Source: Lentisphaerota bacterium (GTDB taxonomy: Bacteria; Verrucomicrobiota; Kiritimatiellia; CAIQIC01; JAGNIJ01). Taken from it: a stretch of 64,000 bases of DNA. The position numbers and the translations under genes were made by a program. The stretch spans positions 58,695 to 122,694 of the forward strand of contig JBPOJF010000003.1 in NCBI GenBank assembly GCA_052033915.1, given 5' to 3'. Positions 2,868 to 64,000 of the stretch are shown in pieces. Position 1 is the first letter of the stretch. Every line of letters starts with the position of its first letter. The notes beneath the pieces were generated by a model. The model had not been told where the DNA came from. It was given only the letters and a program-made list of their open reading frames with translations, and did no database searches.

Positions 2868-3013
2868 TCGGCGGGAATATGCTCCACGCGACAAAAAGTC
2901 TCAATCGAAAAAATGAAGACGGGAAACGGAGGCGCCAGCCTGGAGGCGAATTGCCATTCTTTGACAGGGGCGGTTTCCTGTGTTATTTTCCGCGGCATTG
3001 TTGTCGGGGAGTT

Positions 3014-12220: not shown

Positions 12221-12318
12221 GCTTACGTGTCTGATCAACAAGGGTACCAGAAACTCCAGCGGGGGTCAAACCGGCCCTTGCCCTTGTGCGCGGGCGGGGT
12301 TTTTCTATAATGCGGGGC

Positions 12319-39549: not shown

Positions 39550-42500
39550 TTATCGCTTCAACACTTTCAGCGCGCGTTCGCGCCATTCGCCGGAGAGGTT
39601 GGGGAGGGCTTTCACGGCGAGGTCGAAGCCGTTCTTGGCCTGGCCCTGCGCGATCAGGATCTCGCCTTGTACGAGAGTGTGGTTGGCGTCGTCCGGATCG
39701 ATCGTCGATGCCAGCAGGATATGCTCCATCGCCTTGTCGTACTGCCCAAGGCCCTTGCAGGCCTCGGCGAGCGTGTGGTGGTACTTGTCGTTTGAAGGCT
39801 TCAGATTGACCGCCTCCTGCGCCAGCGTCATGGCTTCGGTGAAGCGGCCCATGCGGACCAAGTCGTAGGCCAGGTTGTTCAGGGCGACATCGTAGAGCGG
39901 ATTGTCTCGATTCTTGAGGCATCGGCGCAAGTAAGTCTCCCTGGCTTCAGGCGTATCCATCAAAGACGCCATGGCCAGGTTCCCGATCATGTTGCCGGGA
40001 TCGCCGGACAGCAACTCTTCGGCCTTCTTGCGCGCTTCGCTGTTCCGTCGCAGTTGCATCGAAAGCCGGATGATGTTCTCGCGCAGGGCTGTGTCCTGCG
40101 GGGTCGTGGCCTCGATCGTCTTCATGTGGCTGAGCGCGGTCGCCAGGTCGCCTTTTTTCTGGGCCACGGACGCCATCAGCTTGAGCATGGGCAGGTTCGC
40201 GGCATCGACGGCCAGGACTTTGCGCGCGAACAACTCCGCCTTGTCGTACTGGTTCAACTGCCATGCCGACATCGCGATAAACGACGCCGAAAGAGTCGTC
40301 TGGTTCGTAGTCGAGAGCAACTGGTTGTAGATGTCCTCCCCGCGCGCCGTATCGCGGTTCTCGAGGTAGAGCAGAGCCAGCAGACTCCGGGCGTTCACGT
40401 TGGCGGCCGACGCCGGGTTCTCCTCCAGAACCTGTATTGCCTTCGCGTAGTCTCTCATGTCCCGCGCCGCGACCGCCAAGCCGATCCGGGCGGAGATGTT
40501 GTCGGGCTGAGTCTGAAGGATGCTGCGGTACTCGGCCTCGGCTTCCGCGAGGTCGCCCTTGCCCTGGGCCAGCAGGGCCGAACTGATCTTCACGGAGAGG
40601 CTGTCCGGGTTGATCATCCGGGCTTGGTTGATCGCGCCGGCTTCCATATCGCGCTGGCCGCCGCGCCGCGCGATGTTGGCCATGTTCAGCGCGAAATGCT
40701 CGGAATAGAGGTATCCGTAGTTCGCAGTCATCATGAACGCGGAACGAAGGAACTTGGGGAACGCCGCCGCTTCTCTCTGGGCCCGCTCCAGAAGGGCCTG
40801 TGCCTTCTGGGTCAGCATCTCCGATCGGACGGTATCGCCGCCGCTGTCGGCTTCCTTGAGGTAGATTGCCCTCTGGTTGAGCAGCGCGCTCGGGTTCTGG
40901 GGCAGGATCTTGAGCGCCAGGTCGTAGGCCTTCTGCGCCAGATCGTCCGACTTCAGCAGTTGCAGGGTCACGCCGAGGTTGTTCGCGCACCGCGAGTAGT
41001 TCTGGCGGACGAACATCTTGAGGGTGTTCGTGCTGTGGTCCGAGATCACCGCTTGGAGCTGATTCGCGAAGGTGTTCTCGAAGTAGTTGACGTTCTTCAG
41101 GTAGACCTCAGATGCCTTCAGGCCGGACAAGTTCTCGACAGGCCGCACCACCAGACCGTTCGGCACGAACTGGTAGCCGATTGACAGGGTCAGGTCGGGA
41201 TTGAACAGCGAACATCCGGCGGGGCCCTTTGCGTTGCCGGACACAATCGCCTTCAGGATGTCCGTTTGCGTGGCGTACGCGGAGGCGTTGATGTTGCATT
41301 CAGGGAATAGGGTGGAGAGGTAACGGCGGTACGATGGCCGACTGATGTCCTGGGCCATGACGATGCGCTCGGGCTGGCCTTCCTCAAAGGCGGCATGAAG
41401 GATCATGTCGTCCATGAAGGAGCGCGAAACGACGAAGACGGGCCGGTTTTCGCACGACCGGACGATGTTCCGGATCAACGCCGTCAGTTCGGGGGTCCGC
41501 GGCGGCACGAAGTGGATGTAGTTCATCACGGCGGTCACGATGGCGATCACGAGGTTCGCGATAGCCGCGGTCTTCCAGACCGGCCTCATCCACAGGGAGG
41601 ATAAGTTCGGGCTCGGGATCACCGCGCGAAACCACCAGTATCCCGCGAGATATCCCATCCACGACGCGATCGCGAGATAGGGGATCAGGAAGGGGTCGTT
41701 CAGACCCATGATGATCGTCGGCGTCATGCCCTTCTCGAGGATCTGCGCGACGCCGAGCACGTTCAGCACAAGCAGGGTGACGATGGTCAGCGCATGCGCG
41801 AGCCGCGTCGAGCCGTAATCCGGCCGCGGCACCAGATACACGTAGATCCACGGCACAAACGCGCAGAGCGCGATCAGAAGACCGCCGACACGCGGAAAGA
41901 TGGATTTGACCTCCAAGTACTGCTTGCGCCACAGATCCAGCAGGACGTTCCAGAACCCCGAGTATTCCTGATATCCCCACTCGGGCAGGCGGGCGACGGC
42001 CCCGACAGGCACGATGTAGAAGAGAAGGCCGCAGAAACCAAGGGCGACGAGCAGCCACAGCCGCTTGGCCGTCAACGCGCGCCGGTACAGCAGGGCGACG
42101 AGCGCCGCGATGACGAAGACAGGGCCGAGAGCGATCATTGTCGCGTATTCGGTGACTCCGAGCCCGTAGAGTAGCGCGGCCCCCATGATCCACCGGACGC
42201 TCGCGTTGGCTCGCGCGTACTGGAGGACCATCCAGAAGCACGACAGCAGGATGAAGAGGTCGAACGTGTGGTTGTCCGGCCGCGTGGAGGCAGTCCACAG
42301 CGGCGCGCAGAACATGACGAACAGCGCGGACGCCAGGATCGCCACGCTCTTTGACGCGCGGGACGCGCCGGCGGGGATCGGCGACGCCTTGTCGTGCACG
42401 ACGAACATCGGCAGTCGGTTCAGCAACTGCACGAACAGGACGATCGAAAGGGATCCGAACACGGCGGAAATGAGATTGAGGTTCATGAGGGTCGGACCGG

Positions 42501-42717
42501 GCATCACGCGAACCACGAGCTTCGCGAGCGAGGAATAGAGGAAGTGCGGGAGCACGGGGAGGTAGTAAAGCCCGTTGACGGTGTTGATGATTCGGACTGA
42601 TGTTCCCGGAACAACATCGCGGACCATTGTCGCGAGGTACAGAATAAAGGATCCGATTCCCGCGATCCACGGTGTTAGGCCGGCCAGCTTGGACAATGGA
42701 TGTTTCGATCCCTGCAT
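39550..42717 (-). CDS. GT-C-fold membrane glycosyltransferase-like protein (DUF2723/TMEM260- and PMT-like N-terminal multi-TM domain) with C-terminal TPR array, paralog 1
   Basis: ~450-aa polytopic N-terminus (LYLATMVRDVVPGTSV... loop-1 acidic motif), ~600 aa of TPR repeats; same architecture as the 45624-48620 gene. Confidence 0.55.
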   Translation of the reverse strand: MQGSKHPLSKLAGLTPWIAGIGSFILYLATMVRDVVPGTSVRIINTVNGLYYLPVLPHFLYSSLAKLVVRVMPGPTLMNLNLISAVFGSLSIVLFVQLLNRLPMFVVHDKASPIPAGASRASKSVAILASALFVMFCAPLWTASTRPDNHTFDLFILLSCFWMVLQYARANASVRWIMGAALLYGLGVTEYATMIALGPVFVIAALVALLYRRALTAKRLWLLVALGFCGLLFYIVPVGAVARLPEWGYQEYSGFWNVLLDLWRKQYLEVKSIFPRVGGLLIALCAFVPWIYVYLVPRPDYGSTRLAHALTIVTLLVLNVLGVAQILEKGMTPTIIMGLNDPFLIPYLAIASWMGYLAGYWWFRAVIPSPNLSSLWMRPVWKTAAIANLVIAIVTAVMNYIHFVPPRTPELTALIRNIVRSCENRPVFVVSRSFMDDMILHAAFEEGQPERIVMAQDISRPSYRRYLSTLFPECNINASAYATQTDILKAIVSGNAKGPAGCSLFNPDLTLSIGYQFVPNGLVVRPVENLSGLKASEVYLKNVNYFENTFANQLQAVISDHSTNTLKMFVRQNYSRCANNLGVTLQLLKSDDLAQKAYDLALKILPQNPSALLNQRAIYLKEADSGGDTVRSEMLTQKAQALLERAQREAAAFPKFLRSAFMMTANYGYLYSEHFALNMANIARRGGQRDMEAGAINQARMINPDSLSVKISSALLAQGKGDLAEAEAEYRSILQTQPDNISARIGLAVAARDMRDYAKAIQVLEENPASAANVNARSLLALLYLENRDTARGEDIYNQLLSTTNQTTLSASFIAMSAWQLNQYDKAELFARKVLAVDAANLPMLKLMASVAQKKGDLATALSHMKTIEATTPQDTALRENIIRLSMQLRRNSEARKKAEELLSGDPGNMIGNLAMASLMDTPEARETYLRRCLKNRDNPLYDVALNNLAYDLVRMGRFTEAMTLAQEAVNLKPSNDKYHHTLAEACKGLGQYDKAMEHILLASTIDPDDANHTLVQGEILIAQGQAKNGFDLAVKALPNLSGEWRERALKVLKR

Positions 42718-45623: not shown

Positions 45624-48620
45624 CTACAGCATCGGCATTCCGGGAAGGCTCATGGGGAGGCCCGGCTGCTGGATCGGGGGCACCAAGGCCTTGAACTCAT
45701 GGTTCTCGCGCACGGGATTGAACCGCGGATCTTTCCGGATCACATCGCGTACCGGCTCTCCGCCGAGTTCGATGGCGCGCTTGATCGATTGCACGCACTC
45801 GTTCGGTTTCTGCATGGCCGCCTGGATGGCCGCGAGATCGATCCACACATTGGGGTTCGCGGGCTCGCGGGCCAGGTATTTCTCGAGGGCCGTGGCCAGG
45901 AGATCCATGCGCTTGGCGTCCGCATACATCTTGGCGACGGCCAAGTAGGCGTTCGGCGGGATGTTCGTATCGTTCAGAATGCTCATGGTCAGGCCCTGGA
46001 ACTGGCCTTCGAGGTTGAGCTTGCGGTACAGATCCGCCAGTTCCATGGCCGTGTTCAGTTCGCCCTGTCCCTGGTTGAACTGCGCTTCGAGTTGCGCGCG
46101 CCGGTTGTCCGCTTTCTCGGTCTCGCGGATCTGGTTCAGGAAATCGCCGACCTTGGCGTTGCCGGGATCCTCGCGGAGGAATGCGTCAATCAGCTTGCCG
46201 GCATCGGAGAAACGCCGCTGCTGCATGAGGACGTCCGCCAGCCGGAAATTGGCCTCCGGGCTGAGCGGGTAGAGGTCAATGGCCTGCTGGAAGGCGTACT
46301 CGGCCTCGGGGAACATGCGGCGATAGGCATAGATGCCCGCGATCGCGCCGCGCAGCTTGGAGAACGTTTTCCGGGCCACCACGTCGCGCAGGAACTTGGG
46401 GTTTCCGAGCAGGCGCTGCGTGTACCAGTCCCAGAAATCGCGGTCCTTCTTCACCAGTTCCGGCGACAGGGACGGCAGCGGGTCTGAGTTCAGCTTCATG
46501 ATCAGCCCGTTGGGGGTGAGGTAGGGGTACATCCACGGGATGACGTAACTTTCTTCGACGTAGAATGCGTGCTTGTGCTTGTTGGCCTCGAAGATCATCC
46601 GGCACAGGATGCCGTTGATCATCATGACGCCCTGCACGCCCTGCACGCTGACGCGTCCGTTATCGAACTGCACATCCGCGCCCGGGGGGATGCGCCCGGC
46701 CTGCACGTCCTCCACGTACTTCTGGAACGCGAAATTGCTGTCCTGCTGCGACGGAATCCAGATCGTGTCGCCGTACAGGTCGCGCATGACGCTCATGTAC
46801 GTGTTGTCGGCCAGCGCATTCTGCGTAATGAGGTACACATCCGACCGCACCTTGGCGCAGTAGATCATGTACGTGGGGACGAACCGTCCGGGGTCGGTGC
46901 CCCCGAAGAAAATCGCGTTGGTGTCCATCGGCGGGGGGTAATCCGGCGTGGGATACTGCTTCCAGATCTGTTCGAATTCCTCCGCGGACTTCTTGTAACC
47001 GAGGTCCGATCGAATTCCGTCCACACCCTGAAGCTGCCAGTTGCCGAATTGCCAGCCGAAGTCGTGCTGGTTCTGCTCGGCCCCGCCGACGATCTTGATC
47101 TGCTCCTTGTCGTACGCGTTCTGATACAGGAGCACCGCCGGGAACACGACGACGATGACCAGGGCCAGCGGCTTGATGATGCCGCGCCCGCCGAGAAGCG
47201 TTTCAAGATAGGCGAGCGCAAAGAGGGCTCCGTACCCGAGCCAGATGGCGTACACCGCGTGCGACTGGATGAATTGCACGCGGCCGATGAAGAGCGTCTG
47301 GATATCCAGGTCGGGGTTCTGGAATGTGATGAGAACAATGCTGAGCGAGACGAACGCGACCAGCGAGGTGATCAGCCAGGTCCGGCCCCGGCGGTCGATG
47401 CGTCCGATGAAGAAGAAGGGCACCAGGCCGATGAGGGCAAGGGGAAGCGTGAACTGTTGGCGCAGATCCTTGAAGTACGCGCCCAACTGCGCGACGAACT
47501 TGGCCGAGAAGATGTCCGACGCGGTGATCTTCTCGTATTGCCCGCGCGTGAGGGCGTGCTTGAAGCCTTCCGGCGTGCGGGGGTATCCCCAGTTGATCGG
47601 GGGGTTCTGCTCGGAGGAGATGGGCATGAACCCGTTGAACCCGAGCCCCAGCAGGCACAGACTGCCGATGAGCAGGACGCGCTTCCATTCGGTCATGAGC
47701 TTGCGCTCGATCAGGAACAGGCCCACGGGCGCGAGCAGGAACAACACCGCCATCGTGGTTGTTGTGTTCTTCGAGCGCAGGACTTCCGGCGAGAGGTGGC
47801 CGGTCATGGCGCCGGCTTTCCAGAACAGGTACCCGGAAACGCAGAGGGACAGCGCGGCCATGCAGTCGCGGAAGAGCGAGCGGTCGCGGAACCAGATGGC
47901 GGTCACCAGCGCCGGGCCGACGAAGAGAAGGGTCTGGTGGTTCGTGATGCCGAATCCGAACAGGAACGCGGTGATGTAGAGGATTTTGTCCTCCTTCGGC
48001 CGGCACATCCACATGTACGTCAGGAGGAGCAGAAGCATCTGGAAGAAGGCGTTCAGCGCGTACACCTCGACGATGACCGCCTGGGACCAGAGCACGGGGC
48101 TGAAGGCCAGCAGGAGTCCGCCGGTGACGCCGCCGACCCAGCACAAGAGGCTTTCCGTGGAGATCCCGATCACGTCCGTGGTCTTCTTCACGCTGCGGAG
48201 CATGTCCGTTCCGGAGCGGCTGACCAGGAGAGCGAGCATCCCGCAGGCGAGGGCTCCGAAGAAGGCCGAGGCCAGTCCGACGCTCCACGCCGGATTCGGA
48301 TTCCCGTAGTAGCGAACCCAGCCGAAGATCCATTGGAAGAACCATGTGAACAACGTCCAACTGGGATATCCCGGCGGGTGCGGGACGCCGAGATAGTCCG
48401 AACCCACGGCCAGTTCGCCGCTGTCTTCCAGCGTGACGGTGGGGGCCAGGGTGTAGCAGTACACGCCGAAGGTGATCAGGAAGGTGGTCCAGAACGCCCC
48501 CCAGTCCAGTTTCCGGAAGAAGGCGCCGCTTTGATGGTCGAAGAACGCGGCTTTCTCTTCCGGAGATTGCGAAACGGCTTGGGCACGCACGGTTTTATTC
48601 GGGTTTTTATGATCAGCCAT
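45624..48620 (-). CDS. GT-C-fold membrane glycosyltransferase-like protein (DUF2723/TMEM260-like) with C-terminal TPR array, paralog 2
   Basis: ...YCYTLAPTVTLEDSGELAVGSDYLGVPHPPGYP... N-terminal loop motif typical of DUF2723; ~11 TM helices; C-terminal TPR repeats (...YAFQQAIDLYPLSPEANFRLADVLMQQRRFSDAGKL...). Confidence 0.7.
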   Translation of the reverse strand: MADHKNPNKTVRAQAVSQSPEEKAAFFDHQSGAFFRKLDWGAFWTTFLITFGVYCYTLAPTVTLEDSGELAVGSDYLGVPHPPGYPSWTLFTWFFQWIFGWVRYYGNPNPAWSVGLASAFFGALACGMLALLVSRSGTDMLRSVKKTTDVIGISTESLLCWVGGVTGGLLLAFSPVLWSQAVIVEVYALNAFFQMLLLLLTYMWMCRPKEDKILYITAFLFGFGITNHQTLLFVGPALVTAIWFRDRSLFRDCMAALSLCVSGYLFWKAGAMTGHLSPEVLRSKNTTTTMAVLFLLAPVGLFLIERKLMTEWKRVLLIGSLCLLGLGFNGFMPISSEQNPPINWGYPRTPEGFKHALTRGQYEKITASDIFSAKFVAQLGAYFKDLRQQFTLPLALIGLVPFFFIGRIDRRGRTWLITSLVAFVSLSIVLITFQNPDLDIQTLFIGRVQFIQSHAVYAIWLGYGALFALAYLETLLGGRGIIKPLALVIVVVFPAVLLYQNAYDKEQIKIVGGAEQNQHDFGWQFGNWQLQGVDGIRSDLGYKKSAEEFEQIWKQYPTPDYPPPMDTNAIFFGGTDPGRFVPTYMIYCAKVRSDVYLITQNALADNTYMSVMRDLYGDTIWIPSQQDSNFAFQKYVEDVQAGRIPPGADVQFDNGRVSVQGVQGVMMINGILCRMIFEANKHKHAFYVEESYVIPWMYPYLTPNGLIMKLNSDPLPSLSPELVKKDRDFWDWYTQRLLGNPKFLRDVVARKTFSKLRGAIAGIYAYRRMFPEAEYAFQQAIDLYPLSPEANFRLADVLMQQRRFSDAGKLIDAFLREDPGNAKVGDFLNQIRETEKADNRRAQLEAQFNQGQGELNTAMELADLYRKLNLEGQFQGLTMSILNDTNIPPNAYLAVAKMYADAKRMDLLATALEKYLAREPANPNVWIDLAAIQAAMQKPNECVQSIKRAIELGGEPVRDVIRKDPRFNPVRENHEFKALVPPIQQPGLPMSLPGMPML

Positions 48621-52110: not shown

Positions 52111-52938
52111 TTACTTGCGGACGTTCCAGCCCAGGTTGCGGCCCAGCAACTGGAACAGGGCTTCGTTGTGCGGTTCGAAGTATTTTTGCAGATCCTCGTA
52201 AACGGATTCGGGGACGCCGGGCGCCCGTCCGCTCAGGTCCTGGGCCACGACTCTGGACGGCACGAAGCCCGCGTTGACTTCGAGAAACGAGAAGATCACG
52301 TGCAGGGCGTGTTCCGGGTCCGAGAAGAACTCCTCGCTGGTGAGCACCAGAAGCCGGCGCCGCTCGAACAGATCGAAATACCGCTTGAGCTGATCCACGT
52401 AGATTCCGCGCGTCTTGTAGCTCTTGCGGTGATGGATTTCGCTGACGTAGAACTCGTCGTTCCGCATCTTCTCCAACTCGGGCTTCAGCCGGCTTTCCTC
52501 CAGCCGCAGGGCTTCCTCGATGGGCTGATCCTCTTCGCCCATGTGCGTCTCCCGGAAGTAGTGGGATACGGCGCGCTCCACCGGATTCCGCAGGAGCGCG
52601 ATCATCTTCACGTCGGGCAGGACGTGACGGATGCGCTCCGGGGCGCGGGGGTGAAACAGGTAATACGGGGTCGCTTCGCCGGTGATCCGGTTGTCGCCCA
52701 TCCGCTTGCGGGTGGGGAAGTGAAGCCGGTACCAGGGAACGCCCTTCTGGAAATTCCGGTCGAAGAAGTGAATCTCCTTTTCCGTCCCCGGCAGGATCTG
52801 CGGGTGCTTCATCATCCACTTGTAGAGACGGGTGGTTCCCGATCGCTGGGCGCCGAGGATGAGGAACTGGGGCAGGGCGTGCCGGGGCGCCAGCAGTCTG
52901 TAGAGGGAACGTTCGAGAATGGACGGATGGCTGTTCAT
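52111..52938 (-). CDS. PAPS-dependent sulfotransferase family protein (cytoplasmic)
   Basis: ILGAQRSGTTRL 5'-PSB motif and ALLRNPVERAVSHY 3'-PB motif. Confidence 0.85.
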   Translation of the reverse strand: MNSHPSILERSLYRLLAPRHALPQFLILGAQRSGTTRLYKWMMKHPQILPGTEKEIHFFDRNFQKGVPWYRLHFPTRKRMGDNRITGEATPYYLFHPRAPERIRHVLPDVKMIALLRNPVERAVSHYFRETHMGEEDQPIEEALRLEESRLKPELEKMRNDEFYVSEIHHRKSYKTRGIYVDQLKRYFDLFERRRLLVLTSEEFFSDPEHALHVIFSFLEVNAGFVPSRVVAQDLSGRAPGVPESVYEDLQKYFEPHNEALFQLLGRNLGWNVRK

Positions 52939-52957
52939 CGCGTGGCCCGTGGCCGGC

Positions 52958-53986
52958 TTATTCCTCCTGCGGCGCCGGCGCGGCCGGACCGCTCAACTCC
53001 TTGATCGTGCCGTCGATCTGTCCGAACCGGTTCTGAATCTTGCCGAACCATTTTTCGGCCTCCTCGAACTTGCCCTGCGAGTTGCCCAGGTGCTGGCCGA
53101 CGAGACGGAACGACTCCTCGAACCGGCCGAACTCCTTGCCGAGGCTCGCGAGCTGGTTGAGCATTTCCCGCGCGCGCTCTTCGATCCGCATGCCCTTGAG
53201 GCCCAGGAGGATGGTTTGCAGGTACGCGTAGAAGCTGTTCGGCGATACGGGGATCACGCGCTTGCCCAGCGCGTAGTTGAACAGCGACATCTCGCCGCCG
53301 AACTCGTCGTCGCGGACGATGCTTTCGTAGTAGACGTTCTCGGCCGGGATGTACATCAGGGCGAAATCGAAGGTGCCTTCGTCCGTCCGGATGTACTTCG
53401 AAGCGATCGCGTCAATGTGCTTCCGGACGTCGCGCAGGAAGTTCTTCTTCGCGAGTTTCCGCTCGTTCTCGCCGGCTGCGGCGACCAGGACCCGGAAGTT
53501 CTCGAGGGGAAACTTGGCGTCCACCGGCACGAGCCCGGCCTTCAAGACGATGACCGCGTCGACCTTCTCGCCGCTCCCGAAGGCGTGCTGAAGCCGGAAA
53601 TGTTCGGAGGGGAGAATCTGCGCGAGCAGATCCCCGAGGAACAGTTCGCCGAGATTGCCGCGGAGCTTGGGGGCGCGGAGGATTTCCTGCAAGCTCGAGA
53701 TGTCCTTGCCGAGATCGAAGATGCGCCGGGAGGCCTCGCCGAGCTGGCCCAGTTGTCCGCTCACGCCCTGGATCACCTGGGCGGCCTTGTCGAGCCGGAG
53801 GTTCATCGATTCGCGCGTCGTTTCCATGGATTGCGCGACCTGCGCGTTGAGCGCGTTCACCTGGTTCTGGAGCAGGACCAGCGCCTGGTCGTCCCGCGGC
53901 TGCGCGATGGCGCGGCGAATCCACCACGCGGCGAGAAACGTCGCGAGGAGAACAACGCCCACGGCCATGATTACAATCTGTTCCAT
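52958..53986 (-). CDS. rmuC: DNA recombination protein RmuC
   Basis: N-terminal TM anchor and coiled coil, conserved ...DFALMYIPAENVYYE...GKRVIPVSPNSFYAYLQTILLGLKGM... Confidence 0.9.
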   Translation of the reverse strand: MEQIVIMAVGVVLLATFLAAWWIRRAIAQPRDDQALVLLQNQVNALNAQVAQSMETTRESMNLRLDKAAQVIQGVSGQLGQLGEASRRIFDLGKDISSLQEILRAPKLRGNLGELFLGDLLAQILPSEHFRLQHAFGSGEKVDAVIVLKAGLVPVDAKFPLENFRVLVAAAGENERKLAKKNFLRDVRKHIDAIASKYIRTDEGTFDFALMYIPAENVYYESIVRDDEFGGEMSLFNYALGKRVIPVSPNSFYAYLQTILLGLKGMRIEERAREMLNQLASLGKEFGRFEESFRLVGQHLGNSQGKFEEAEKWFGKIQNRFGQIDGTIKELSGPAAPAPQEE

Positions 53987-54001
53987 CAGCCCTCTTCTCT
54001 T

Positions 54002-54844
54002 CTACCGCACCAGCATTACGGGCGCCGTGGAATTCGCGATGATCTGCGCGGTCGTGCTGCCGACGATCATCTTCCGGATACGGCTGTGGCCGTACGCGCC
54101 GATGACGATCAGATCGCAGCGCTCGTTGCGCGCGTTCTCGAGAATCGCCGCGGACGGCTTGCCCTGGACGACGAGGTTCAGCGCCTGCAGCCCGTGCGCC
54201 TTGACCAGGTCGCACGCGTCCTTCGAGATGTCGTCCGCGCGCGTCGCGTCCTCGTTCTCCGCGACGGTCAGCAGCACGAGTTCCGCCTGGATCGCCTGCG
54301 CCAGTTCCGTGGCCTCGTGGAGGGCCCGGCCGGCGTGCGAGCTGCCGTCGTACGCGGCGAGAATCCGGGTGATGGGCCGGAAGGCGCCGGGCGTGACCAG
54401 GCAGGGTTTGGCCGACTGGCGCACCACGCGCTCCACGATGGACCCGCTCATGTCGCCGATCCATTTCGCGTGCTCGCCCTTCTGGCCCATGACGACCAGT
54501 TCCGCGCGCGCTTCTTCTTCGAGGATGACTTTCGGCGGATGGCCCCTCTTCACGACGGCCTCGGCCTGGATGCCCGCCTCCTCGCAGCGGCTGTGGAACG
54601 CGCGAAGGATCGTGTTGCCCTTTTCCTCCATCAATTTCCGGAACTGCTGAAGCTGGGCCCCGTACGGCTGGGCGCCGATCCAGCCGGAGATATCGGCCAT
54701 CAGCGGACCTTCGAGCATGCGCGAATCGAGCACGTGCAGCCCGAGCAGGCGCGCGCCGAGCTGACGGGTCAGGTGTATCGCGTATTCGCAGGCCACATCG
54801 CCGTGCGGGGATCCATCCGTGCAGACCAGAATGCTCTTGATCAT
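54002..54844 (-). CDS. Universal stress protein with tandem UspA domains
   Basis: Two ~140-aa Usp modules (ILVCTDGS...MGQKG...GSIVERVVRQS... and ILAAYDGS...VIGAYGHS...GSTTAQIIANS...). Confidence 0.85.
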   Translation of the reverse strand: MIKSILVCTDGSPHGDVACEYAIHLTRQLGARLLGLHVLDSRMLEGPLMADISGWIGAQPYGAQLQQFRKLMEEKGNTILRAFHSRCEEAGIQAEAVVKRGHPPKVILEEEARAELVVMGQKGEHAKWIGDMSGSIVERVVRQSAKPCLVTPGAFRPITRILAAYDGSSHAGRALHEATELAQAIQAELVLLTVAENEDATRADDISKDACDLVKAHGLQALNLVVQGKPSAAILENARNERCDLIVIGAYGHSRIRKMIVGSTTAQIIANSTAPVMLVR

Positions 54845-54970
54845 GAGGGTATCCTTTTCCTGAGCTTGAAATCTGCCGTCATGATGCCGGGCCGTCCGCG
54901 ATTTGTCGAGGCCGGGGAGTTGACGCGTCGTTCTTGCACGGGGCGGCTTCCGGTTGCTATGTTACCGCCC

Positions 54971-57349
54971 ATGGCTGTCAAAAAGGAAATTGTCCGCACC
55001 GGCTGGAGAGAGCTTTGGGGCATCATCCTGGTCGGGTTGAGCGTGCTCGTGCTTTTGAGTCTGATCTCGTACCAGCCGGGGGATATTCCGCTGGTCCAGA
55101 CGCCCCCCAACTCTCCGGCCCAGAATTTCATCGGCCCGGTCGGGGCATGGATTGCCTACACGATTTTCATGGGGCTGGGCGTGGTCGGCTACCTGGTGTC
55201 GGTCATTCTCGGGATCACCGGCCTCCTGCTGATCTTTAAGCGCGAGGGGCGCGTGTGGCCAAAGGTGCTGTGGATGCTGGCGATTCTCGTCTCGTTCCTG
55301 TGCCTGGTCGAACTCAAGGACTCGTCGTGGTCCGGCTGGACCGAGCGGTTCAACATCGGCGGTCCCGGCGGGGCGCTGGGCATGCTGATCGCCCGGGACT
55401 TCTTCATCCGCTTCCTCGGCGTGATGGGCGCCGGTCTGATCGCCACGGTCGTGCTGATCGCCGGGATCATCTTCCTGATCGAAGTTCATCCCGTCACCCT
55501 GGCCCGGCAGTTGGGCGCACTCTCAGGCGCGCTGTACCGCAAGTTCGACGCGCTGCTGGCGGAGCGGCGCGACCAGCGGGATCAGATCGAGCGCGAACAG
55601 CGTGAGCTGGCGAAGCGGCGGCGGCGTCTCGAAGAGGCGATGAAGGAGCAGGAGTCCGTCAAACAGAAAGAGACGCGCCGCAAGCCCGCGATCGGGCCTG
55701 CCGTGGTCATCAAGCCCGAGGCGCTTCAGCCGCCGGTTCCCGAGGACGATGAGCCCGAAGAGATCATTCCGCCTCCGCCTCCCAGACGCGAGCGGCAGAA
55801 ATCGGTCAAGACGGAGGATTCGGCTGCGGGTCCGGCCGTGGTCGGTTCCGCCGGCTCGCCGTTCAAGCTCCCGCCGATGGAACTGATCGATCCTCTGCCT
55901 CCGGAGAAGGACCGGGAGATCAAGGGCGATTTCCAGGCCGGTGCCGCTGTCCTGAAGGAAACGCTCACCGAGTTCGGCATTGACGCGGATATCACGAATG
56001 TCGAACGCGGGCCGGTGGTCACCCGCTACGAGGTGCTGCCCGCCCCGGGCGTGCGCGTGGAGCGAATTGCCGCGCTGAACAACAACATCGGGCTTGCGAT
56101 GAAGGCGGAGAGCGTGCGCATCCAGGCGCCGATTCCGGGCAAGGGCGTCGTCGGTATCGAGGTTCCCAATTCCAATACCACCCTGGTCTGCCTGCGCGAG
56201 GTGCTCGAGAGCAACGCGTGGCTGTCCGGCAAGGCGGCCTTGCCGCTGGTGCTGGGCAAGGACGTCGGCGGGCGCGTGATCGTGGCCGATCTCTCGGAAA
56301 TGCCCCACATGCTGATTGCCGGCGCGACCGGCTCCGGCAAGACCGTCTGCATGAATTCCGTGCTCGCCGGCCTGCTGATGTCGCGCACGCCCGACCAGAT
56401 GCGCCTGATGCTGATCGATCCCAAGATCGTCGAATTTGCGGCGTACAACCGCCTGCCGCACCTGGTGGTTCCCGTCATCACGGACCCGAAGAAAGTCGCG
56501 ATCGGGTTGCGCTGGGCGATCACGGAGATGGAGAAGCGGTACAAGCTGTTCGCGCGCGTCGGGGTCCGGAACATCAAGTCGTTCAACAGCCGGCCGATCG
56601 CCAAGCAGGAGGAACTGTTCGCGGGTCCGGAGTCGGAAGAGGAGAGGCCCGAGGAGAAGACGCCGGACCGCCTGCCGTATATCGTCATCGTCGTGGACGA
56701 ACTCGCCGATCTGATGCTCGCGGCGCAGGCGGACATCGAGAACGGCATTGCGCGCCTGGCCCAGTTGTCGCGCGCGGTCGGTATTCACATGATCCTCGCC
56801 ACGCAGCGGCCCTCGGTCAATGTCATCACCGGCACCATCAAGGCCAACTTCCCCGCGCGGATCTCCTTCCAGGTGGCCCAGAAGGTGGATAGCCGGACGA
56901 TCCTCGACGCGAACGGCGCCGACAAGCTGCTGGGCAAGGGCGATATGCTCTTCCTGCCCCCGGGCAGCGGCAAGCTGATCCGCGCGCAGGGCACCATGAC
57001 GACGGACGCGGAGCTTCATCGCATCGTGGATTTCTGGAAGAAGCAGGGCGTGCCGAACTACGAGACCGCCATCAAGGAAAAGATCGAAAACGCCAGCGCG
57101 ATCGACATGGACAACGGCGAGGACGACGAGTTGTTGGAGGCGGCGATCGAGATTATCCGGCAGACCAAGCGCGCTTCGACCTCCTCCCTTCAGCGGCGTC
57201 TGCGGATCGGTTACACGCGCGCCGCGCGGCTGATGGATATCCTGGAAGCCCGCGGAGTGGTGGGCCCGGCGCAGGGTTCGGATCCGCGGGAGATTCTGGT
57301 CGATTTGGACGGCCAGATACCGCAGAATAAACCGGACGGCACGGAGTAA
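54971..57349 (+). CDS. ftsK: DNA translocase FtsK
   Basis: N-terminal 4-TM domain, PA-rich linker, motor domain GATGSGKTVCMNSVL and IVIVVDELADL, C-terminal gamma domain ...RRLRIGYTRAARLMDILEARGVV...; the ORF-track extension upstream of 54971 is not coding. Confidence 0.95.
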   Translation: MAVKKEIVRTGWRELWGIILVGLSVLVLLSLISYQPGDIPLVQTPPNSPAQNFIGPVGAWIAYTIFMGLGVVGYLVSVILGITGLLLIFKREGRVWPKVLWMLAILVSFLCLVELKDSSWSGWTERFNIGGPGGALGMLIARDFFIRFLGVMGAGLIATVVLIAGIIFLIEVHPVTLARQLGALSGALYRKFDALLAERRDQRDQIEREQRELAKRRRRLEEAMKEQESVKQKETRRKPAIGPAVVIKPEALQPPVPEDDEPEEIIPPPPPRRERQKSVKTEDSAAGPAVVGSAGSPFKLPPMELIDPLPPEKDREIKGDFQAGAAVLKETLTEFGIDADITNVERGPVVTRYEVLPAPGVRVERIAALNNNIGLAMKAESVRIQAPIPGKGVVGIEVPNSNTTLVCLREVLESNAWLSGKAALPLVLGKDVGGRVIVADLSEMPHMLIAGATGSGKTVCMNSVLAGLLMSRTPDQMRLMLIDPKIVEFAAYNRLPHLVVPVITDPKKVAIGLRWAITEMEKRYKLFARVGVRNIKSFNSRPIAKQEELFAGPESEEERPEEKTPDRLPYIVIVVDELADLMLAAQADIENGIARLAQLSRAVGIHMILATQRPSVNVITGTIKANFPARISFQVAQKVDSRTILDANGADKLLGKGDMLFLPPGSGKLIRAQGTMTTDAELHRIVDFWKKQGVPNYETAIKEKIENASAIDMDNGEDDELLEAAIEIIRQTKRASTSSLQRRLRIGYTRAARLMDILEARGVVGPAQGSDPREILVDLDGQIPQNKPDGTE

Positions 57350-57356
57350 CGGATTC

Positions 57357-57905
57357 ATGGCGACCATCGGACAGGTTTTGAAAGCAGCTCGCGAACAGAA
57401 GGGCGTGACGGCCTCCCAGGCCGCCGCCGCGACCCATATGAAAGTCCAGGTCGTGGAGGCGCTCGAGCGAGACGACTACAGCCGGATTGCCGCGCCCATG
57501 TACGTGAGGGGATTCCTCAAGCTGTACGGAGAGTACCTGGGCCTCGACCCGGCGCCGCTGATCCGGGAATACATGGAACTGCACTCGCCGAAGGATCGGC
57601 CGCCGCTCGTTTCGCAGGAAGCCCCGCCGTCGGATTCGGCCACCGAGCGCAAAAAGATCGAAATCGACGGGTCCAGGCTCAAGGCGTTTTTCGACAAGGT
57701 GAAGAAGCCGGTCGCCGTCGGCCTCGGCGTGATCGTGCTGGTCGTTGCGGCGGTGAACGGAATCACCCGCTGCAGCCGCCGGATTACCGAACCCCGGCAG
57801 GCGGCTGCGCCGGCGGCGTCGGAGAAAAAGACGCCGCTGCCCGTTCTTCGCGAGCCTCCTGATCCGTATATCGAGATTCCCACCCCAGGCCGGCCAAATC
57901 CGTGA
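57357..57905 (+). CDS. RodZ-like HTH protein (N-terminal XRE-type HTH, single TM, periplasmic C-terminus)
   Basis: MATIGQVLKAAREQKGVTASQAAAATHMKVQVVEALERDDYSRIAAPMYVRGFLKLYGEYLGLD then TM VAVGLGVIVLVVAAV. Confidence 0.6.
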   Translation: MATIGQVLKAAREQKGVTASQAAAATHMKVQVVEALERDDYSRIAAPMYVRGFLKLYGEYLGLDPAPLIREYMELHSPKDRPPLVSQEAPPSDSATERKKIEIDGSRLKAFFDKVKKPVAVGLGVIVLVVAAVNGITRCSRRITEPRQAAAPAASEKKTPLPVLREPPDPYIEIPTPGRPNP

Positions 57906-60791: not shown

Positions 60792-61712
60792 TTACGGATT
60801 GATACGGATCAGGCTGGCCTGGCCGGTCACGGAAGACTCTTCCGTCTCAAAGACGCCGGTGATTTGATTCCCGACGTGCGTCCCCATCACATGAATCATG
60901 TCAAACGGATCCGCGTTGTCCGGGTTAACGCCTTTCGTGTAGAAGAACCCGCTGGCGGGGCCCTCGTTCAGCGAGAAGAGCCGGCCGATATTGTTGCTGC
61001 CGAAACCGATAATGTTCGTGGCCAGGCCGCGCGAATCGACCTCCAGCCGGATTGGGCGATGGATTGTGGCGCCGGGAAACGTATGTGTCAGGACGCCCGT
61101 CCAGACACCCATGCAGCGTGAATCATCCTCCACGCGGCGGATGACGGCGCCTGCATAAGGGGCGCCCAGCAGGATCAGGTTACGGTCCGAGAACCCGCCG
61201 CGCAGATGGACCTGCTCGTCGTTGGTGATGAAGGTGAGATCGACCATGCCCGTCGCCCCGACGGTAAAGTATCCCGAAGGAGCCCTGGGGATGAACAGCG
61301 CGCTTTCGCTGATGATCCCGTCCTCCAGGGCGACGAAGTGAGTATTTCCGTGGGTCTCGTCGATGATTATCCATGCGTCGCGCATGTCGGCCGGTGTGAA
61401 GGATTGACGGACCCGGTAGAACATCGGCACAGATACCGTGGTCGCGGCGCCTGTGGTCACGATGCTGTCCAGACTGTGCCAGTCGTTTGACCAGGGACCG
61501 GAGAGATTGGGCGCCCACTGCACGGCGAATCCATGTACGCCGGGCGTGTTCGTCCAAGACAGCCAGCCGTTGCCGGATAAGGATACGATCACGGGCGGAT
61601 TTTCGGCGGGGGCCGGCAAGGTCATCGAGCCGACGAGCCATAGAAAAGCCGCGGCAACGATCCCATACCGGAATATGCGCGCCCGGCTCCAAGCAGAGAA
61701 GTGGGAAGACAT
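60792..61712 (-). CDS. Secreted hypothetical protein
   Basis: Strong RBS GAAGGAG before ATG 61712; signal anchor IFRYGIVAAAFLWLVGSMTLPAPA; no recognisable catalytic motif. Confidence 0.55.
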   Translation of the reverse strand: MSSHFSAWSRARIFRYGIVAAAFLWLVGSMTLPAPAENPPVIVSLSGNGWLSWTNTPGVHGFAVQWAPNLSGPWSNDWHSLDSIVTTGAATTVSVPMFYRVRQSFTPADMRDAWIIIDETHGNTHFVALEDGIISESALFIPRAPSGYFTVGATGMVDLTFITNDEQVHLRGGFSDRNLILLGAPYAGAVIRRVEDDSRCMGVWTGVLTHTFPGATIHRPIRLEVDSRGLATNIIGFGSNNIGRLFSLNEGPASGFFYTKGVNPDNADPFDMIHVMGTHVGNQITGVFETEESSVTGQASLIRINP

Positions 61713-61886
61713 TTGCGTCTCCTTCCTACTACTATTTTCGCTACTTCTAGACGCCGCCGGGGTTGTTGTCAAAAACTTTGTATCAGGAAGTGATCGGGGG
61801 AGGGCAAAACACCCGAATTCAGCCCTTAAAACGATCATTATTGCGGAGGGGATACTTATGGCCCTGGAATTGATAACGTTTTAGCC

Positions 61887-61990
61887 ATGACCGTACACAC
61901 CGGCGCGACGTCACAAACCTACTTTTATGTCAAGGATCGGCTCGGTTCTGTCCACGCCCTCGTCAACTCCTCGAGGGGGAGGGGGCCAGT
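61887..61990 (+). pseudogene. Fragment resembling the RHS-repeat-associated core motif (orphan remnant)
   Basis: TGATSQTYFYVKDRLGSVHALVNSS matches the YxYxxDHLGS-type Rhs core motif; lies in an AT-rich patch next to tRNA-Phe with no upstream YD-repeat body. Confidence 0.35.
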
Positions 61991-62117
61991 AGTGTTGGGG
62001 CATGATCTTTGCGGATGGACGTTGCGGGAGTTGGGCGAGAAAGCGGGAGGGATGGATGAGCATGGCGGGCAAGTTCGAGAGAGGGCTCAAGGAGGACGGA
62101 GCAAGGAGGCTGACGAA

Positions 62118-62193
<76 letters not shown>

Positions 62194-62417
62194 ACGCAAG
62201 GGGCTGATACTACTGACAAACGGCTCGATGTCAACGCGAAGAAAAATAGTTCAAAAAAATTTAACACAAAGAATGACCGGGGTATATTTACTTGTAGCTC
62301 TGCGGATTGGTCAGCCTTGAGGATCAAATATACCGAGAAAGAGCTAGGCTTGTTGAGGATAGCCTTTTAAGGTTCTGACCAGCACGCAGAGCCTTCTCTA
62401 TTGTCCCGCCTTGACCC

Positions 62418-62876
62418 TTATGTTCCGGCCGGCCCTGAAAGGGCGTCAAGCACTTCATCCGGGCTGGTCGCGCTGAGAATGCGGTCGCGCACGGCGCTGT
62501 CGTTGAGTTGGCGGCTGATCTCGGCGAGGAATTGGATGTGCGGTCCGGTGCGCGTGTCGGGCGAGAGCGTCATCACGAAGATCCTCGAGGGCAGGCCGTC
62601 CAGAGACCCGAAATCCGTGCCGTCTTTCTTGACCGCGATCGCCGCCACGAGGGAGTCCACCTTGTCGGTCTTTCCGTGCGGAATGGCGATGCCGTTCTGC
62701 ATGCCGGTGGACATCTTGCGCTCCCGGTCGATGACGGCTTTCAGGGCGTCTTTCTTCTCCCTGATCTTTCCGGATGCCATCAGAAAATCGATCATCTCCT
62801 CGATGATCGCTTCCTTCGCGTTGCTCTTCAGATCCAGCAGAACCGCGTCTTTCGACAATGTCTTTCTGAGGTTCAT
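62418..62876 (-). CDS. ptsN: Standalone PTS EIIA type-2 protein (PtsN/EIIA-Ntr-like)
   Basis: NGIAIPHGK phospho-histidine motif; ~150 aa; ATG at 62876. Confidence 0.85.
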   Translation of the reverse strand: MNLRKTLSKDAVLLDLKSNAKEAIIEEMIDFLMASGKIREKKDALKAVIDRERKMSTGMQNGIAIPHGKTDKVDSLVAAIAVKKDGTDFGSLDGLPSRIFVMTLSPDTRTGPHIQFLAEISRQLNDSAVRDRILSATSPDEVLDALSGPAGT

Positions 62877-63180
62877 TCTTCCGGCCTTTTTTGAGACTGC
62901 CGAGCAGGCTCTTAAAGAGCGGCATAATGCCGTTAATCCGAGAACCCGGTCAATACAATTGCGCGCGGATGTGCATGACGGCGGGGCGTCGGAAGATCGT
63001 ACAACGATCCCGGACTCAAGGATTTTCAGGGAGATCGAGATTCTGCGCATTGCACATTCTCGCGCCGGATGCTATAAAAATCGTTGCAGCTTTACCAAGG
63101 ATCGGCATGGCGGAGGGCTCGATAGGGTTCCGAATGTAACCGATGAAATTCCGGTCGCTGCCCGGAACAAGAAAGGACCG

Positions 63181-64000
63181 ATGCATAAGATCATCAAACA
63201 CCTCATTCAACTTCAGGAACTCATGGTCGCCAGGGCGCAACAGGAGGCTTCCATGCCCGGCGCGCGGTTGTCCCAGTTGGATGCTTCCATCCAGACGCTG
63301 TTCAGCGAGTTGCCTCCGGACGTGGCGGAACATTTCCGGAAGATCGAGAAGAAGGGCATGCTGGCGATGGTCCCCATTTCAAACGGCTTCTGCTCGGCCT
63401 GCGGGATGTCTCTGCCGGTGAGCCTGGTTCATGAAGTCCATGCGGCGAAGAAGCTGTATTTCTGCCCCGCCTGCACGCGCATGTTGTACTATCCCGAAGC
63501 GCCGACGCGGAACATCGGCAAGCGGAAGCGCCGGAGCGAGCCGCCCAAGATCGGCATCGAGCGGTTTTCGTCGCCCGAACTGATGATCCCCGATCTGAAG
63601 TCGACGGAGCGTGACGATGCGCTTGCGGAGTTGTGCGCGAAGATGGAGGCGGAGGGGTTTGTGGACAATGCGGCGAAACTTCTCGAGGAGGCCTTGAAGC
63701 GCGAGGCGATCATCAGCACCGCGGTGGATCACGGGCTTGCGTTCCCGCACGTGCGCGGCGTCGAGGGCGGCGGCCTGACCATGGTGCTCGGGCTCAGCCG
63801 TAAGGGGGTCAAGTTCTCGCCCGGCTCGCGCGCGCTGACGCGCATCATCTTCTTCATGGTGATTCCGACGGCGGCCAGCGCGTTCTATCTGAAGCTGCTT
63901 TCGGGTTTGAACCAGGCGTTCCAGAAGGAAGAGGCGCGGGAAAAACTGTTCGAGGCCGAGACGCCGGAACAGTTGTGGAAGTTTCTCTTCAAGGCGACGA
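63181..64000 (+). CDS. N-terminal coiled-coil + C4 zinc-ribbon domain fused to a PTS EIIA type-2 domain (3' end beyond window)
   Basis: AAAGGA RBS; CSACGMSLP...CPACTRMLY zinc ribbon; HGLAFPHVRGVEGG phospho-histidine motif; no stop before the window end. Confidence 0.7.
   Translation, partial: MHKIIKHLIQLQELMVARAQQEASMPGARLSQLDASIQTLFSELPPDVAEHFRKIEKKGMLAMVPISNGFCSACGMSLPVSLVHEVHAAKKLYFCPACTRMLYYPEAPTRNIGKRKRRSEPPKIGIERFSSPELMIPDLKSTERDDALAELCAKMEAEGFVDNAAKLLEEALKREAIISTAVDHGLAFPHVRGVEGGGLTMVLGLSRKGVKFSPGSRALTRIIFFMVIPTAASAFYLKLLSGLNQAFQKEEAREKLFEAETPEQLWKFLFKAT

Follow-up and report, generated by a model that had tools for sequence, protein, structure and literature searches.

A divergent gene pair of Kiritimatiellia and their relatives couples a stand-alone EIIA type-2 protein with a zinc-ribbon–EIIA fusion related to FlgZ/CdsZ

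In many proteobacteria, the genes for the nitrogen-related phosphotransferase system (PTS-Ntr), ptsN and ptsO, lie beside rpoN, and a direct link between PTS-Ntr and sigma-54 has long been suspected. To our knowledge, EIIA-Ntr (PtsN) is known to target K+ transporters, kinases and metabolic enzymes, but not the machinery of sigma-54. Few factors have been reported that bind sigma-54 and stabilise it, FlgZ and CdsZ being among them. PTS-Ntr is also known in other lineages of the Planctomycetes-Verrucomicrobia-Chlamydiae (PVC) superphylum (PMC13104625), and for Kiritimatiella glycovorans a 'rudimentary phosphotransferase system' signalling to proteins of pH and sodium homeostasis has been proposed (Spring et al. 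2016, PMC5148204). This system and the incomplete regulatory phosphotransferase systems (PTSs) of Brucella, Chlamydiales and Planctomycetales share one concept, a cascade driven by phosphoenolpyruvate (PEP) that works without sugar permeases and signals metabolic state to ion-homeostasis and other proteins. Here, we describe two genes to which the same concept may apply, located at the right end of a 64-kb stretch of Lentisphaerota DNA (assembly GCA_052033915.1, contig JBPOJF010000003.1; G+C 62%). This whole stretch is called the window, and all positions are numbered from its first letter. One gene encodes a stand-alone EIIA type-2 protein (solo EIIA) and the other a protein in which a zinc-ribbon module precedes a second EIIA type-2 domain (the fusion). 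Both proteins contain a bona fide EIIA-2 domain with a phospho-acceptor His, and both are conserved throughout the lineage.

The solo EIIA gene (62418-62876, minus strand) encodes 152 amino acids, of which residues 7-147 match Pfam PTS_EIIA_2 (PF00359; E 2e-31, 109.3 bits against a cut-off of 27). Divergent from it, across a 304-bp spacer, lies the Zn_ribbon_9-EIIA_2 fusion gene (63181-64000, plus strand), of whose 278 codons the window holds 273; the gene continues for 15 nucleotides plus a stop codon past the window end. The full-length protein of 278 amino acids ends in KSTIQ, the five C-terminal residues being supplied by two Logan contigs that are identical to the window across an overlap of 1844 nucleotides. 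Residues 71-102 of the fusion match Zn_ribbon_9 (PF02591, DUF164, COG1579; 37.5 bits against 29.1), and residues 131-270 match PTS_EIIA_2 (E 2.4e-22, 79.9 bits against 27). Thus, the two adjacent EIIA-2 genes, and the joining of a zinc ribbon to one of them, which a preliminary description of this DNA had read from its letters and open reading frames (ORFs), are both borne out by Pfam at the positions where they had been placed. The CSACG...CPACT motif reported in that description comprises Cys71/74/95/98, and its HGLAFPHVRG motif holds His190. The ATG at 63181 was taken as the start of the fusion because many homologues are exactly 278 amino acids long, because conservation begins exactly at Met1 (Gln12 and Leu14 being invariant), because no in-frame start codon occurs between 63100 and this ATG, and because a Shine-Dalgarno-like AAAGGA lies just upstream. 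A gene call of 254 amino acids from Met25, found on the Logan contigs, was dropped, since it would remove the conserved N-terminal helix with these two residues. The window has no start codon for a 297-amino-acid form known among homologues.

We modelled the 273 residues of the fusion present in the window with AlphaFold2 (mean predicted local distance difference test (pLDDT) 75, predicted template modelling (TM) score 0.57). The model comprises three helices, a small beta-ribbon, a disordered stretch at residues 107-127 and an alpha/beta EIIA domain. The helical N-terminal region delimited by the model and the alignments (residues 1-57, 63181-63351, plus strand as for all features of the fusion; helices 2-24, 31-43 and 46-57) carries an L-x-Q-L-Q-E-L consensus, to which the invariant Gln12 and Leu14 belong. 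It is followed by the C4 zinc ribbon of PF02591 (Cys71/Cys74/Cys95/Cys98, CxxC-x20-CxxC; 63391-63474), in which Cys74, Cys95 and Cys98 are invariant and Cys71 is present in 27 of 28 sequences of 31-60% identity; Arg100, after the second CxxC, is also conserved. A linker of about 22 residues (63490-63552), predicted to be disordered (pLDDT <50 at residues 107-127), leads to the EIIA type-2 domain (residues 125-273, 63553-63999), which is assigned by Pfam and by structural matches to EIIA-Ntr. In a Foldseek search of the PDB, the top matches of the model were EIIA-Ntr of Neisseria meningitidis (2A0J) and Escherichia coli (1A6J), with TM scores of about 0.8 on the target. The conserved motifs of the domain are G-I-x-R-F-S-S, R-E, L-A-F-P-H-V-R-G and S-A-F-Y-L. 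His190 in LAFPH (codon 63748-63750), the predicted phospho-acceptor, is invariant among closer homologues, and at least 90% of the remote members, whose identity falls as low as 31%, have it too. The linker is conserved in length and is basic in the window's clade (RNIGKRKRRSEPPK), with a charge of +5 in the window protein and of -5 to +6 across the fusion family. A basic linker as a nucleic-acid-binding feature of the whole family was rejected, the basic character being confined to part of it. A DksA/TraR-type coiled coil with a C4 finger was likewise rejected: zf-dskA_traR is not among the Pfam hits with E <=0.1, and Zn_ribbon_9 is.

A profile of the whole fusion family matches solved PtsN structures as well as CT398/CdsZ, HP0958/FlgZ and MSMEG_4306. 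When restricted to the N-terminal module, the profile matches the last ~70-95 residues of CT398 (E 1.2e-12), HP0958 (E 3e-9) and MSMEG_4306 (E 9e-5), that is, their final coiled-coil segment and ribbon; in CT398 and HP0958, this coiled-coil segment aligns with positions 34-57 of the fusion. In the structural search, CT398 was also a match for the N-terminal part of the model (E 1.9e-3). These profile matches identify the module as a truncated member of DUF164/COG1579, so that the 'nucleic-acid- or protein-binding effector' suggested in the preliminary description can be given a more specific identity. Canonical members, namely FlgZ (HP0958, 3NA7), CdsZ (CT398, 4ILO) and MSMEG_4306/ML1638 (5Y05), share with the fusion a homologous CxxC-x20-CxxC ribbon and the helix preceding it. 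However, they are ~240-260 amino acids long and consist of a ~170-residue coiled-coil hairpin with the ribbon at the C-terminus, whereas the fusion has ~57 helical residues, then the ribbon, then the EIIA domain. As judged from the alignments, therefore, the module keeps the zinc ribbon and the hairpin base without the ~170-residue hairpin. By eye, the start of the fusion (MHKIIKHLIQLQEL; MH..I..LIQLQEL) resembles the N-terminus of CT398 (MHDALQSILAIQEL); the resemblance is not statistically significant, but would fit a module that has kept both strands of the hairpin base. The fusion reaches 26.6 bits with the CdsZ equivalog NF047363, whose cut-off is 275. In all 349 DUF164 proteins that Pfam listed in 2011, the ribbon was close to the C-terminus; another domain was present in only three of them, and it was never an EIIA (PMC3372290). 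A library protein of 3802 amino acids (P0145) contains 40 separate stretches matching residues 23-57 of the fusion at 44% identity, and may be a giant repeat protein of the same helical unit or owe the similarity to coiled-coil composition.

The preliminary description had counted three EIIA-2 domains in 64 kb, had called the solo protein 'PtsN-like', and had noted that no sugar permease component is present. The count is right: the third domain belongs, as stated there, to a 505-amino-acid CNNM-CBS-EIIA_2 fusion (10724-12241, minus strand; CNNM E 3e-41, CBS E 9e-13, PTS_EIIA_2 E 1.4e-22), whose C-terminal EIIA_2 domain scores 80.6 bits against the Pfam cut-off of 27. However, this gene lies ~50 kb from the pair and is not clustered with it, and ~1.3 Mb of related DNA contains only two further EIIA-like ORFs beyond the solo and fusion families; 'three in 64 kb' is therefore a conserved pair plus one unlinked gene. 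Pfam scans of ~50 window ORFs detected no EIIB or EIIC domain, in agreement with the description, nor any EI or HPr domain, and the related loci whose neighbours were annotated likewise showed no gene of EIIB/EIIC type. Since only one 64-kb window is covered, the lack of a permease here says little about the genome. All three EIIA domains have the phospho-acceptor His and the RE..ST motif, the His being His67 of the solo protein (GIAIPH; codon 62676-62678, minus strand), His190 of the fusion and, in the CNNM protein, the His of AVPH. In an alignment of the three with E. coli PtsN, these residues fall in one invariant column, where His67 aligns with the GIAIPH His of PtsN. The second conserved His is kept by the solo protein only, being replaced by Tyr in the fusion and by Gln in the CNNM protein.

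Compared with EIIA-Ntr/PtsN proteins of solved structure (1A6J of E. coli, 2A0J of N. meningitidis, 3URR/4GQX of Burkholderia), the window EIIAs share the type-2 fold (TM ~0.8 for the model of the fusion) and the same phospho-acceptor His in G-x-A-x-P-H after RE..ST; as with those proteins, no permease partner lies near the pair, and the expected role is regulation through protein-protein contacts. In contrast, both pair proteins fall below the cut-offs of the PtsN/EIIA-Ntr equivalogs of NCBIfam (TIGR01419, NF008145), with 72.4 bits for the solo EIIA and 35.7 for the fusion against the 138.7 of TIGR01419, and the fusion also has its N-terminal zinc-ribbon module and Tyr for the second His. Neither do they reach the fructose-type IIA family TIGR00848 (cut-off 103.5), which is the best NCBIfam match of the solo EIIA at 98.2 bits, just under the cut-off, and scores 62.4 with the fusion. 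Moreover, the pair lies outside any rpoN operon of the rpoN-hpf-ptsN-(rapZ)-ptsO kind, and no Sigma54 factor, HPr or related gene was found in the window or related loci. 'PtsN-like' therefore holds as an expected role, not as membership of the family. An EIIA domain is also joined to another head in a Kiritimatiellae metagenome-assembled genome (MAG), where a 246-amino-acid protein (L038:9969-10859, minus strand) combines an N-terminal DNA-binding domain, HTH_17 (E 4.6e-9), with PTS_EIIA_2 (E 1.5e-24) and is encoded 1.2 kb downstream of the zinc-ribbon–EIIA gene; EIIA domains joined to transcription-related heads thus recur in the lineage. In Firmicutes, the regulators MtlR, LicR and ManR carry an EIIA-2-like domain joined to a transcription module of helix-turn-helix (HTH) and PTS regulation (PRD) domains, belong to complete sugar PTSs, and are switched in activity when PTS proteins phosphorylate their His residues. 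By Pfam, the fusion has neither a PRD nor an HTH, and the closer analogue of these regulators within the lineage is the HTH_17-EIIA protein.

The fusion and the solo EIIA are widespread in the phylum. Searches returned 2758 homologues of the fusion, of which the best 120 all combine PF02591 with PF00359 at 63-92% identity. Their source names are just 'PTS sugar transporter subunit IIA' or 'IIA component (Ntr-type)' and, where labelled, they come from Kiritimatiellia, Verrucomicrobiota or Lentisphaerae MAGs. With one genome scanned per species, the fusion is encoded in 261 GTDB species genomes; nearly all of the best 80 are labelled Kiritimatiellia, Verrucomicrobia, Lentisphaerae or PVC, a few labels being generic and one reading 'Mollicutes'. 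The family spans 31-92% identity, and over this whole range its Cys residues are conserved, as are the His of AFPH, the RE motif and Tyr236. In a library clustered at 50% identity, ~30-35 representatives are full length and reach down to ~30%, the remote ones with a name being one Kiritimatiellia and one Thermodesulfobacteriota MAG. For the solo EIIA, 2305 homologues of 148-152 amino acids were found; the best 120 have 64-96% identity, and those named by organism are PVC bacteria, mostly Kiritimatiellia. Going by these relatives, the window derives from a PVC bacterium, most probably one of the Kiritimatiellota. On the evidence of these alignments, both EIIA-2 domains and the ribbon are under strong purifying selection across a phylum. 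The divergent pair, with a spacer of 170-310 bp, occurs in 27 of 80 related species loci. In a relative 82% identical (1.1-Mb contig), the pair is intact and the genes on both sides are entirely different. This recurrence, together with survival when the flanks change, indicates that the arrangement is not due to chance. The domain-level finding is solid and phylum-wide.

The pair is predicted from its spacer to be transcribed divergently from back-to-back sigma-70-type promoters. A consensus scan placed a sigma-70-like promoter for the solo EIIA at 62924-62953 (minus strand; TTGACC-18 nt-CATTAT), whose -35 box (GGTCAAT on the plus strand) recurs in 21 of 30 related intergenic spacers. The putative promoter of the fusion (63050-63078, plus strand; TTGCAC-17 nt-TATAAA with TGC before the -10 box) was read from the sequence, its score in the scan falling short of the cut-off; the spacer alignment has conserved blocks at 'ttgcat' and 'tgcTATAA', with TGCTATA in 11 of the 30 spacers. 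If this promoter is used, the fusion has a leader of ~100 nt (63079-63180), in which the spacer alignment contains further short conserved blocks and no Rfam match was found.

In the nearest relatives, a Na+/H+ exchanger gene (Na_H_Exchanger) lies 26-113 bp downstream of the solo EIIA gene. In another Kiritimatiellia lineage (L083-L085:9273-12104), the solo EIIA orthologue sits between genes for an FHA-domain protein and the exchanger, and its 23-bp gap to the latter suggests an operon; the FHA neighbour was seen in this lineage only. In the window, the place of the exchanger is taken by an AT-rich spacer (62200-62417), a tRNA-Phe gene (62118-62193, minus strand; the only RNA gene of the window in an Rfam scan) and an orphan ORF of 348 amino acids (60792-61838) with lower G+C at third codon positions and no homologue in the 80 related loci. 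Two independent Logan assemblies break at 62157, inside the tRNA gene. The region 60792-62417 looks like a strain-variable insertion or rearrangement at tRNA-Phe.

The reading that we favour, tentatively and at slightly less than even confidence, is that the pair encodes permease-independent, PTS-Ntr-like EIIA signalling proteins acting as parallel outputs of a relay, the fusion docking an EIIA switch on the transcription machinery. In this scheme, the PEP/pyruvate state would set how far His67, His190 and the CNNM fusion's His are phosphorylated by an EI/HPr-type relay encoded elsewhere in the genome. Of the parallel outputs, that of the solo EIIA would be directed at separate proteins, in close relatives probably at the downstream Na+/H+ exchanger; the CNNM fusion would gate its own transporter; and the zinc-ribbon fusion would dock through its ribbon on RNA polymerase (RNAP) or on sigma-54 holoenzyme, a mode of action proposed for CT398, HP0958 and ML1638. 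The fusion would thereby keep the anchor of these proteins and swap their sigma-contacting arm for a phosphorylation-switchable EIIA domain on a flexible tether. A regulatory PTS-Ntr-like relay with diversified outputs, as the preliminary description had envisaged, remains the best reading, with the phospho-acceptor His kept in three EIIAs, an exchanger as neighbour, no EIIB/EIIC gene in annotated loci and an HTH_17-EIIA protein elsewhere; but the idea is not new for the lineage (Spring et al. 2016), and neither EI, HPr/NPr nor HprK was seen in the window or the related loci searched.

Docking on RNAP or sigma-54 is the weakest step of the scheme, being suggested by homology to proteins of partly established mechanism, with no support from gene context. 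CT398 has been reported to bind the sigma-54 holoenzyme, and binding of RpoN or its holoenzyme is known only for HP0958 and CT398 (PMC3372290; bioRxiv 10.64898/2026.07.15.738315). RpoN does not accumulate as it should unless FlgZ has its zinc ribbon, and outside Actinobacteria DUF164 and RpoN co-occur (PMC3372290). In AlphaFold 3 (AF3) models, ML1638 and CT398 sit with their zinc ribbon on the beta' shelf/jaw of RNAP and touch sigma-54 with the coiled-coil tip, and the preprint reporting them predicts that FlgZ/CdsZ form a widespread RNAP-docking family (bioRxiv 10.64898/2026.07.15.738315). The window itself encodes an NtrC-type activator (307-1674) with a receiver, a sigma-54 activator AAA+ domain with GAFTGA at residue 219 and a Fis-type HTH, so that the genome presumably uses sigma-54, as do most DUF164 hosts (PMC3372290). 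This response regulator gene adjoins one for a PAS histidine kinase (307-2894, minus strand).

Several points weigh against the favoured reading. The distal coiled-coil tip of CT398, the predicted sigma-54 contact, is exactly the part that the fusion is without, and the contact between ribbon and RNAP is itself an AF3 prediction in a preprint (bioRxiv 10.64898/2026.07.15.738315). DUF164 proteins also occur in bacteria without sigma-54 (PMC3372290). No sigma-54 -24/-12 promoter was found in the divergent spacer (<=2 mismatches to TGGCAC-N5-TTGCW), and matches of this type in the whole window are fewer than in shuffled sequence. The fusion scores far under both the PtsN and the CdsZ equivalog cut-offs, and it has lost the second His that canonical EIIA-2 domains conserve, having in its place Tyr236 (S-A-F-Y-L), which is invariant in closer homologues. 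As to the relay, the preliminary description had proposed a search for ptsP- and ptsO-type genes, which came out negative, with no EI or HPr/NPr in the window or in ~1.24 Mb of related loci. In particular, tblastn with HPr, NPr and EI queries of E. coli and Bacillus subtilis gave no match in 87 records (1.24 Mb), and strict regular expressions for HPr, EI, HprK and RpoN signatures found none in the six-frame window and ~80 related loci; these negatives are weak, because the loci repeat the same neighbourhoods and HPr homologues may escape such searches if they are distant. The neighbourhoods of remote members of the fusion family likewise showed no PTS or rpoN gene. The gene context therefore supports neither the relay nor the link to sigma-54.

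Past the window end, and convergent with the fusion, lie genes for a ~180-amino-acid prepilin-like protein, a 572-amino-acid Ser/Thr kinase, CHAD, PPK1, Ppx-GppA and a ROK kinase (L001:355-8280; also L089, L021 and L079). Of the 80 loci, 26 have the Ser/Thr kinase gene within 8 kb; among the 28 where the solo EIIA is present as well, the number is 20. Co-occurrence of kinase and pair gives p 9e-8 in a Fisher test, which we do not use as evidence because the loci are phylogenetically related; more meaningful is that the kinase block of L021 and L079 is found at the opposite side of the pair, which means that the linkage has survived a rearrangement. This neighbourhood hints that EIIA signalling may be linked to Ser/Thr phosphorylation and to polyphosphate metabolism, and bears on an alternative that we consider rather unlikely, though the best placed of the rivals: the relay is real, but the miniature coiled coil and ribbon serve for oligomerisation, as a scaffold, or to bind RNA or another protein, and the fusion controls neighbours such as the Ser/Thr kinase-CHAD-PPK1-PPX group. 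HP0958 binds FliH and flaA mRNA as well. A review ties its family to chemotaxis, flagellin synthesis and type III secretion. The strongly basic linker of the window's clade would suit this alternative, as would the regulation of polyphosphate synthesis by PtsN in E. coli (bioRxiv 10.1101/2021.10.15.464621). However, the linker is not basic across the family, the linkage counts lack phylogenetic independence, and the kinase and polyphosphate genes are missing from about two thirds of the loci, which have housekeeping neighbours, and from remote members. The second common context of the fusion is of this housekeeping kind (DNA_alkylation, AcrB efflux, shikimate kinase, ABC permease, LeuA), and the contexts of remote members (HypA/CobW...SBF; LolA...AlaS) are uninformative.

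At the other end from a mere scaffold, the fusion could be a transcription-machinery-resident EIIA-Ntr, its ribbon anchored at the beta' shelf/jaw or on the sigma-54 holoenzyme and phosphorylation of His190 altering the contact of the EIIA domain with polymerase or sigma-54; in this specific form, the proposal is an unlikely one.

A relay would be dispensable if the EIIA-2 folds served regulation or ligand binding independently of phosphorylation, in the manner of the cytoplasmic domain of Band 3/SLC4 transporters, an explanation that we hold improbable. It would account for the failure to find EI or HPr in the window and the related loci searched and for the loss of the second His in the fusion and the CNNM protein; SLC4 EIIA-like folds are among the structural matches (5jho, 7x1i, 8gvh), a weak Band_3_cyto hit appears in Pfam, and one remote fusion member (P0131) has Phe in place of the phospho-acceptor His. 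Against it stand the phospho-acceptor His and RE..ST motif of all three window EIIAs, the retention of this His in at least 90% of the fusion family, the rudimentary PTS proposed for the type species of the phylum (PMC5148204), and the PTS-Ntr of other PVC lineages (PMC13104625). That the solo EIIA is simply the IIA of an ordinary fructose/mannitol PTS with its EIIBC elsewhere, incidentally placed by the fusion, is very improbable: the near miss to TIGR00848 and its annotation in sources as a fructose-specific IIA component speak for it, but no EIIB/EIIC was found in the window or annotated loci, the recurrent neighbours are the Na+/H+ exchanger and the fusion, and only a rudimentary PTS is described for K. 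glycovorans by Spring et al. (PMC5148204).

The two domains are known already, and so is the notion, for this phylum, of a regulatory PTS that works without permeases, whereas the zinc-ribbon–EIIA architecture seems to be undescribed. We found no description of this architecture or of the conserved divergent pair in the texts that could be read, and no paper naming both PF02591 and PF00359 among those searched; databases label the fusion merely as a PTS IIA component, and a 2026 review of PTS-Ntr mentions neither zinc nor fusions (PMC13104625). If the fusion were indeed an EIIA-Ntr resident on the transcription machinery, it would serve as a 'Rosetta stone', showing PTS-Ntr and sigma-54 to be physically and directly linked. 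A phylum-wide fusion offers a concrete hypothesis for a direct connection between PTS-Ntr and transcription, a connection that is still hypothetical, and a minimal, 'ribbon-only' version of FlgZ/CdsZ could reveal which part docks. For the Kiritimatiellota, which are understudied polysaccharide degraders, output proteins would be added to the 'rudimentary PTS' of 2016, namely the zinc-ribbon fusion, the solo EIIA with the Na+/H+ exchanger, the CNNM-EIIA protein and the HTH-EIIA protein. If the ribbon is only a scaffold, the fusion would be an ordinary lineage-specific domain shuffle.

The other window ORFs identified by Pfam include mutS, fumarase, yidC, a glycerol-3-phosphate dehydrogenase (DAO family), ABC transporters, two-component systems and proteins with tetratricopeptide repeats (TPR) or of TMEM260-like type. 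Two genes for TMEM260-like (protein O-mannosyltransferase-like) proteins of ~1000 amino acids with TPR (39550-42717 and 45624-48620, minus strand) flank a Peripla_BP_2/FecCD/ABC transporter operon. An ORF of 1477 amino acids with high G+C at first codon positions (52919-57349, plus strand) is probably the shadow of four genes on the minus strand, encoding RmuC (52958-53986), a tandem Usp protein (54002-54844) and two products that match no Pfam family (54962-55489 and 55523-57367), and provides an example of the long spurious ORFs of GC-rich DNA.

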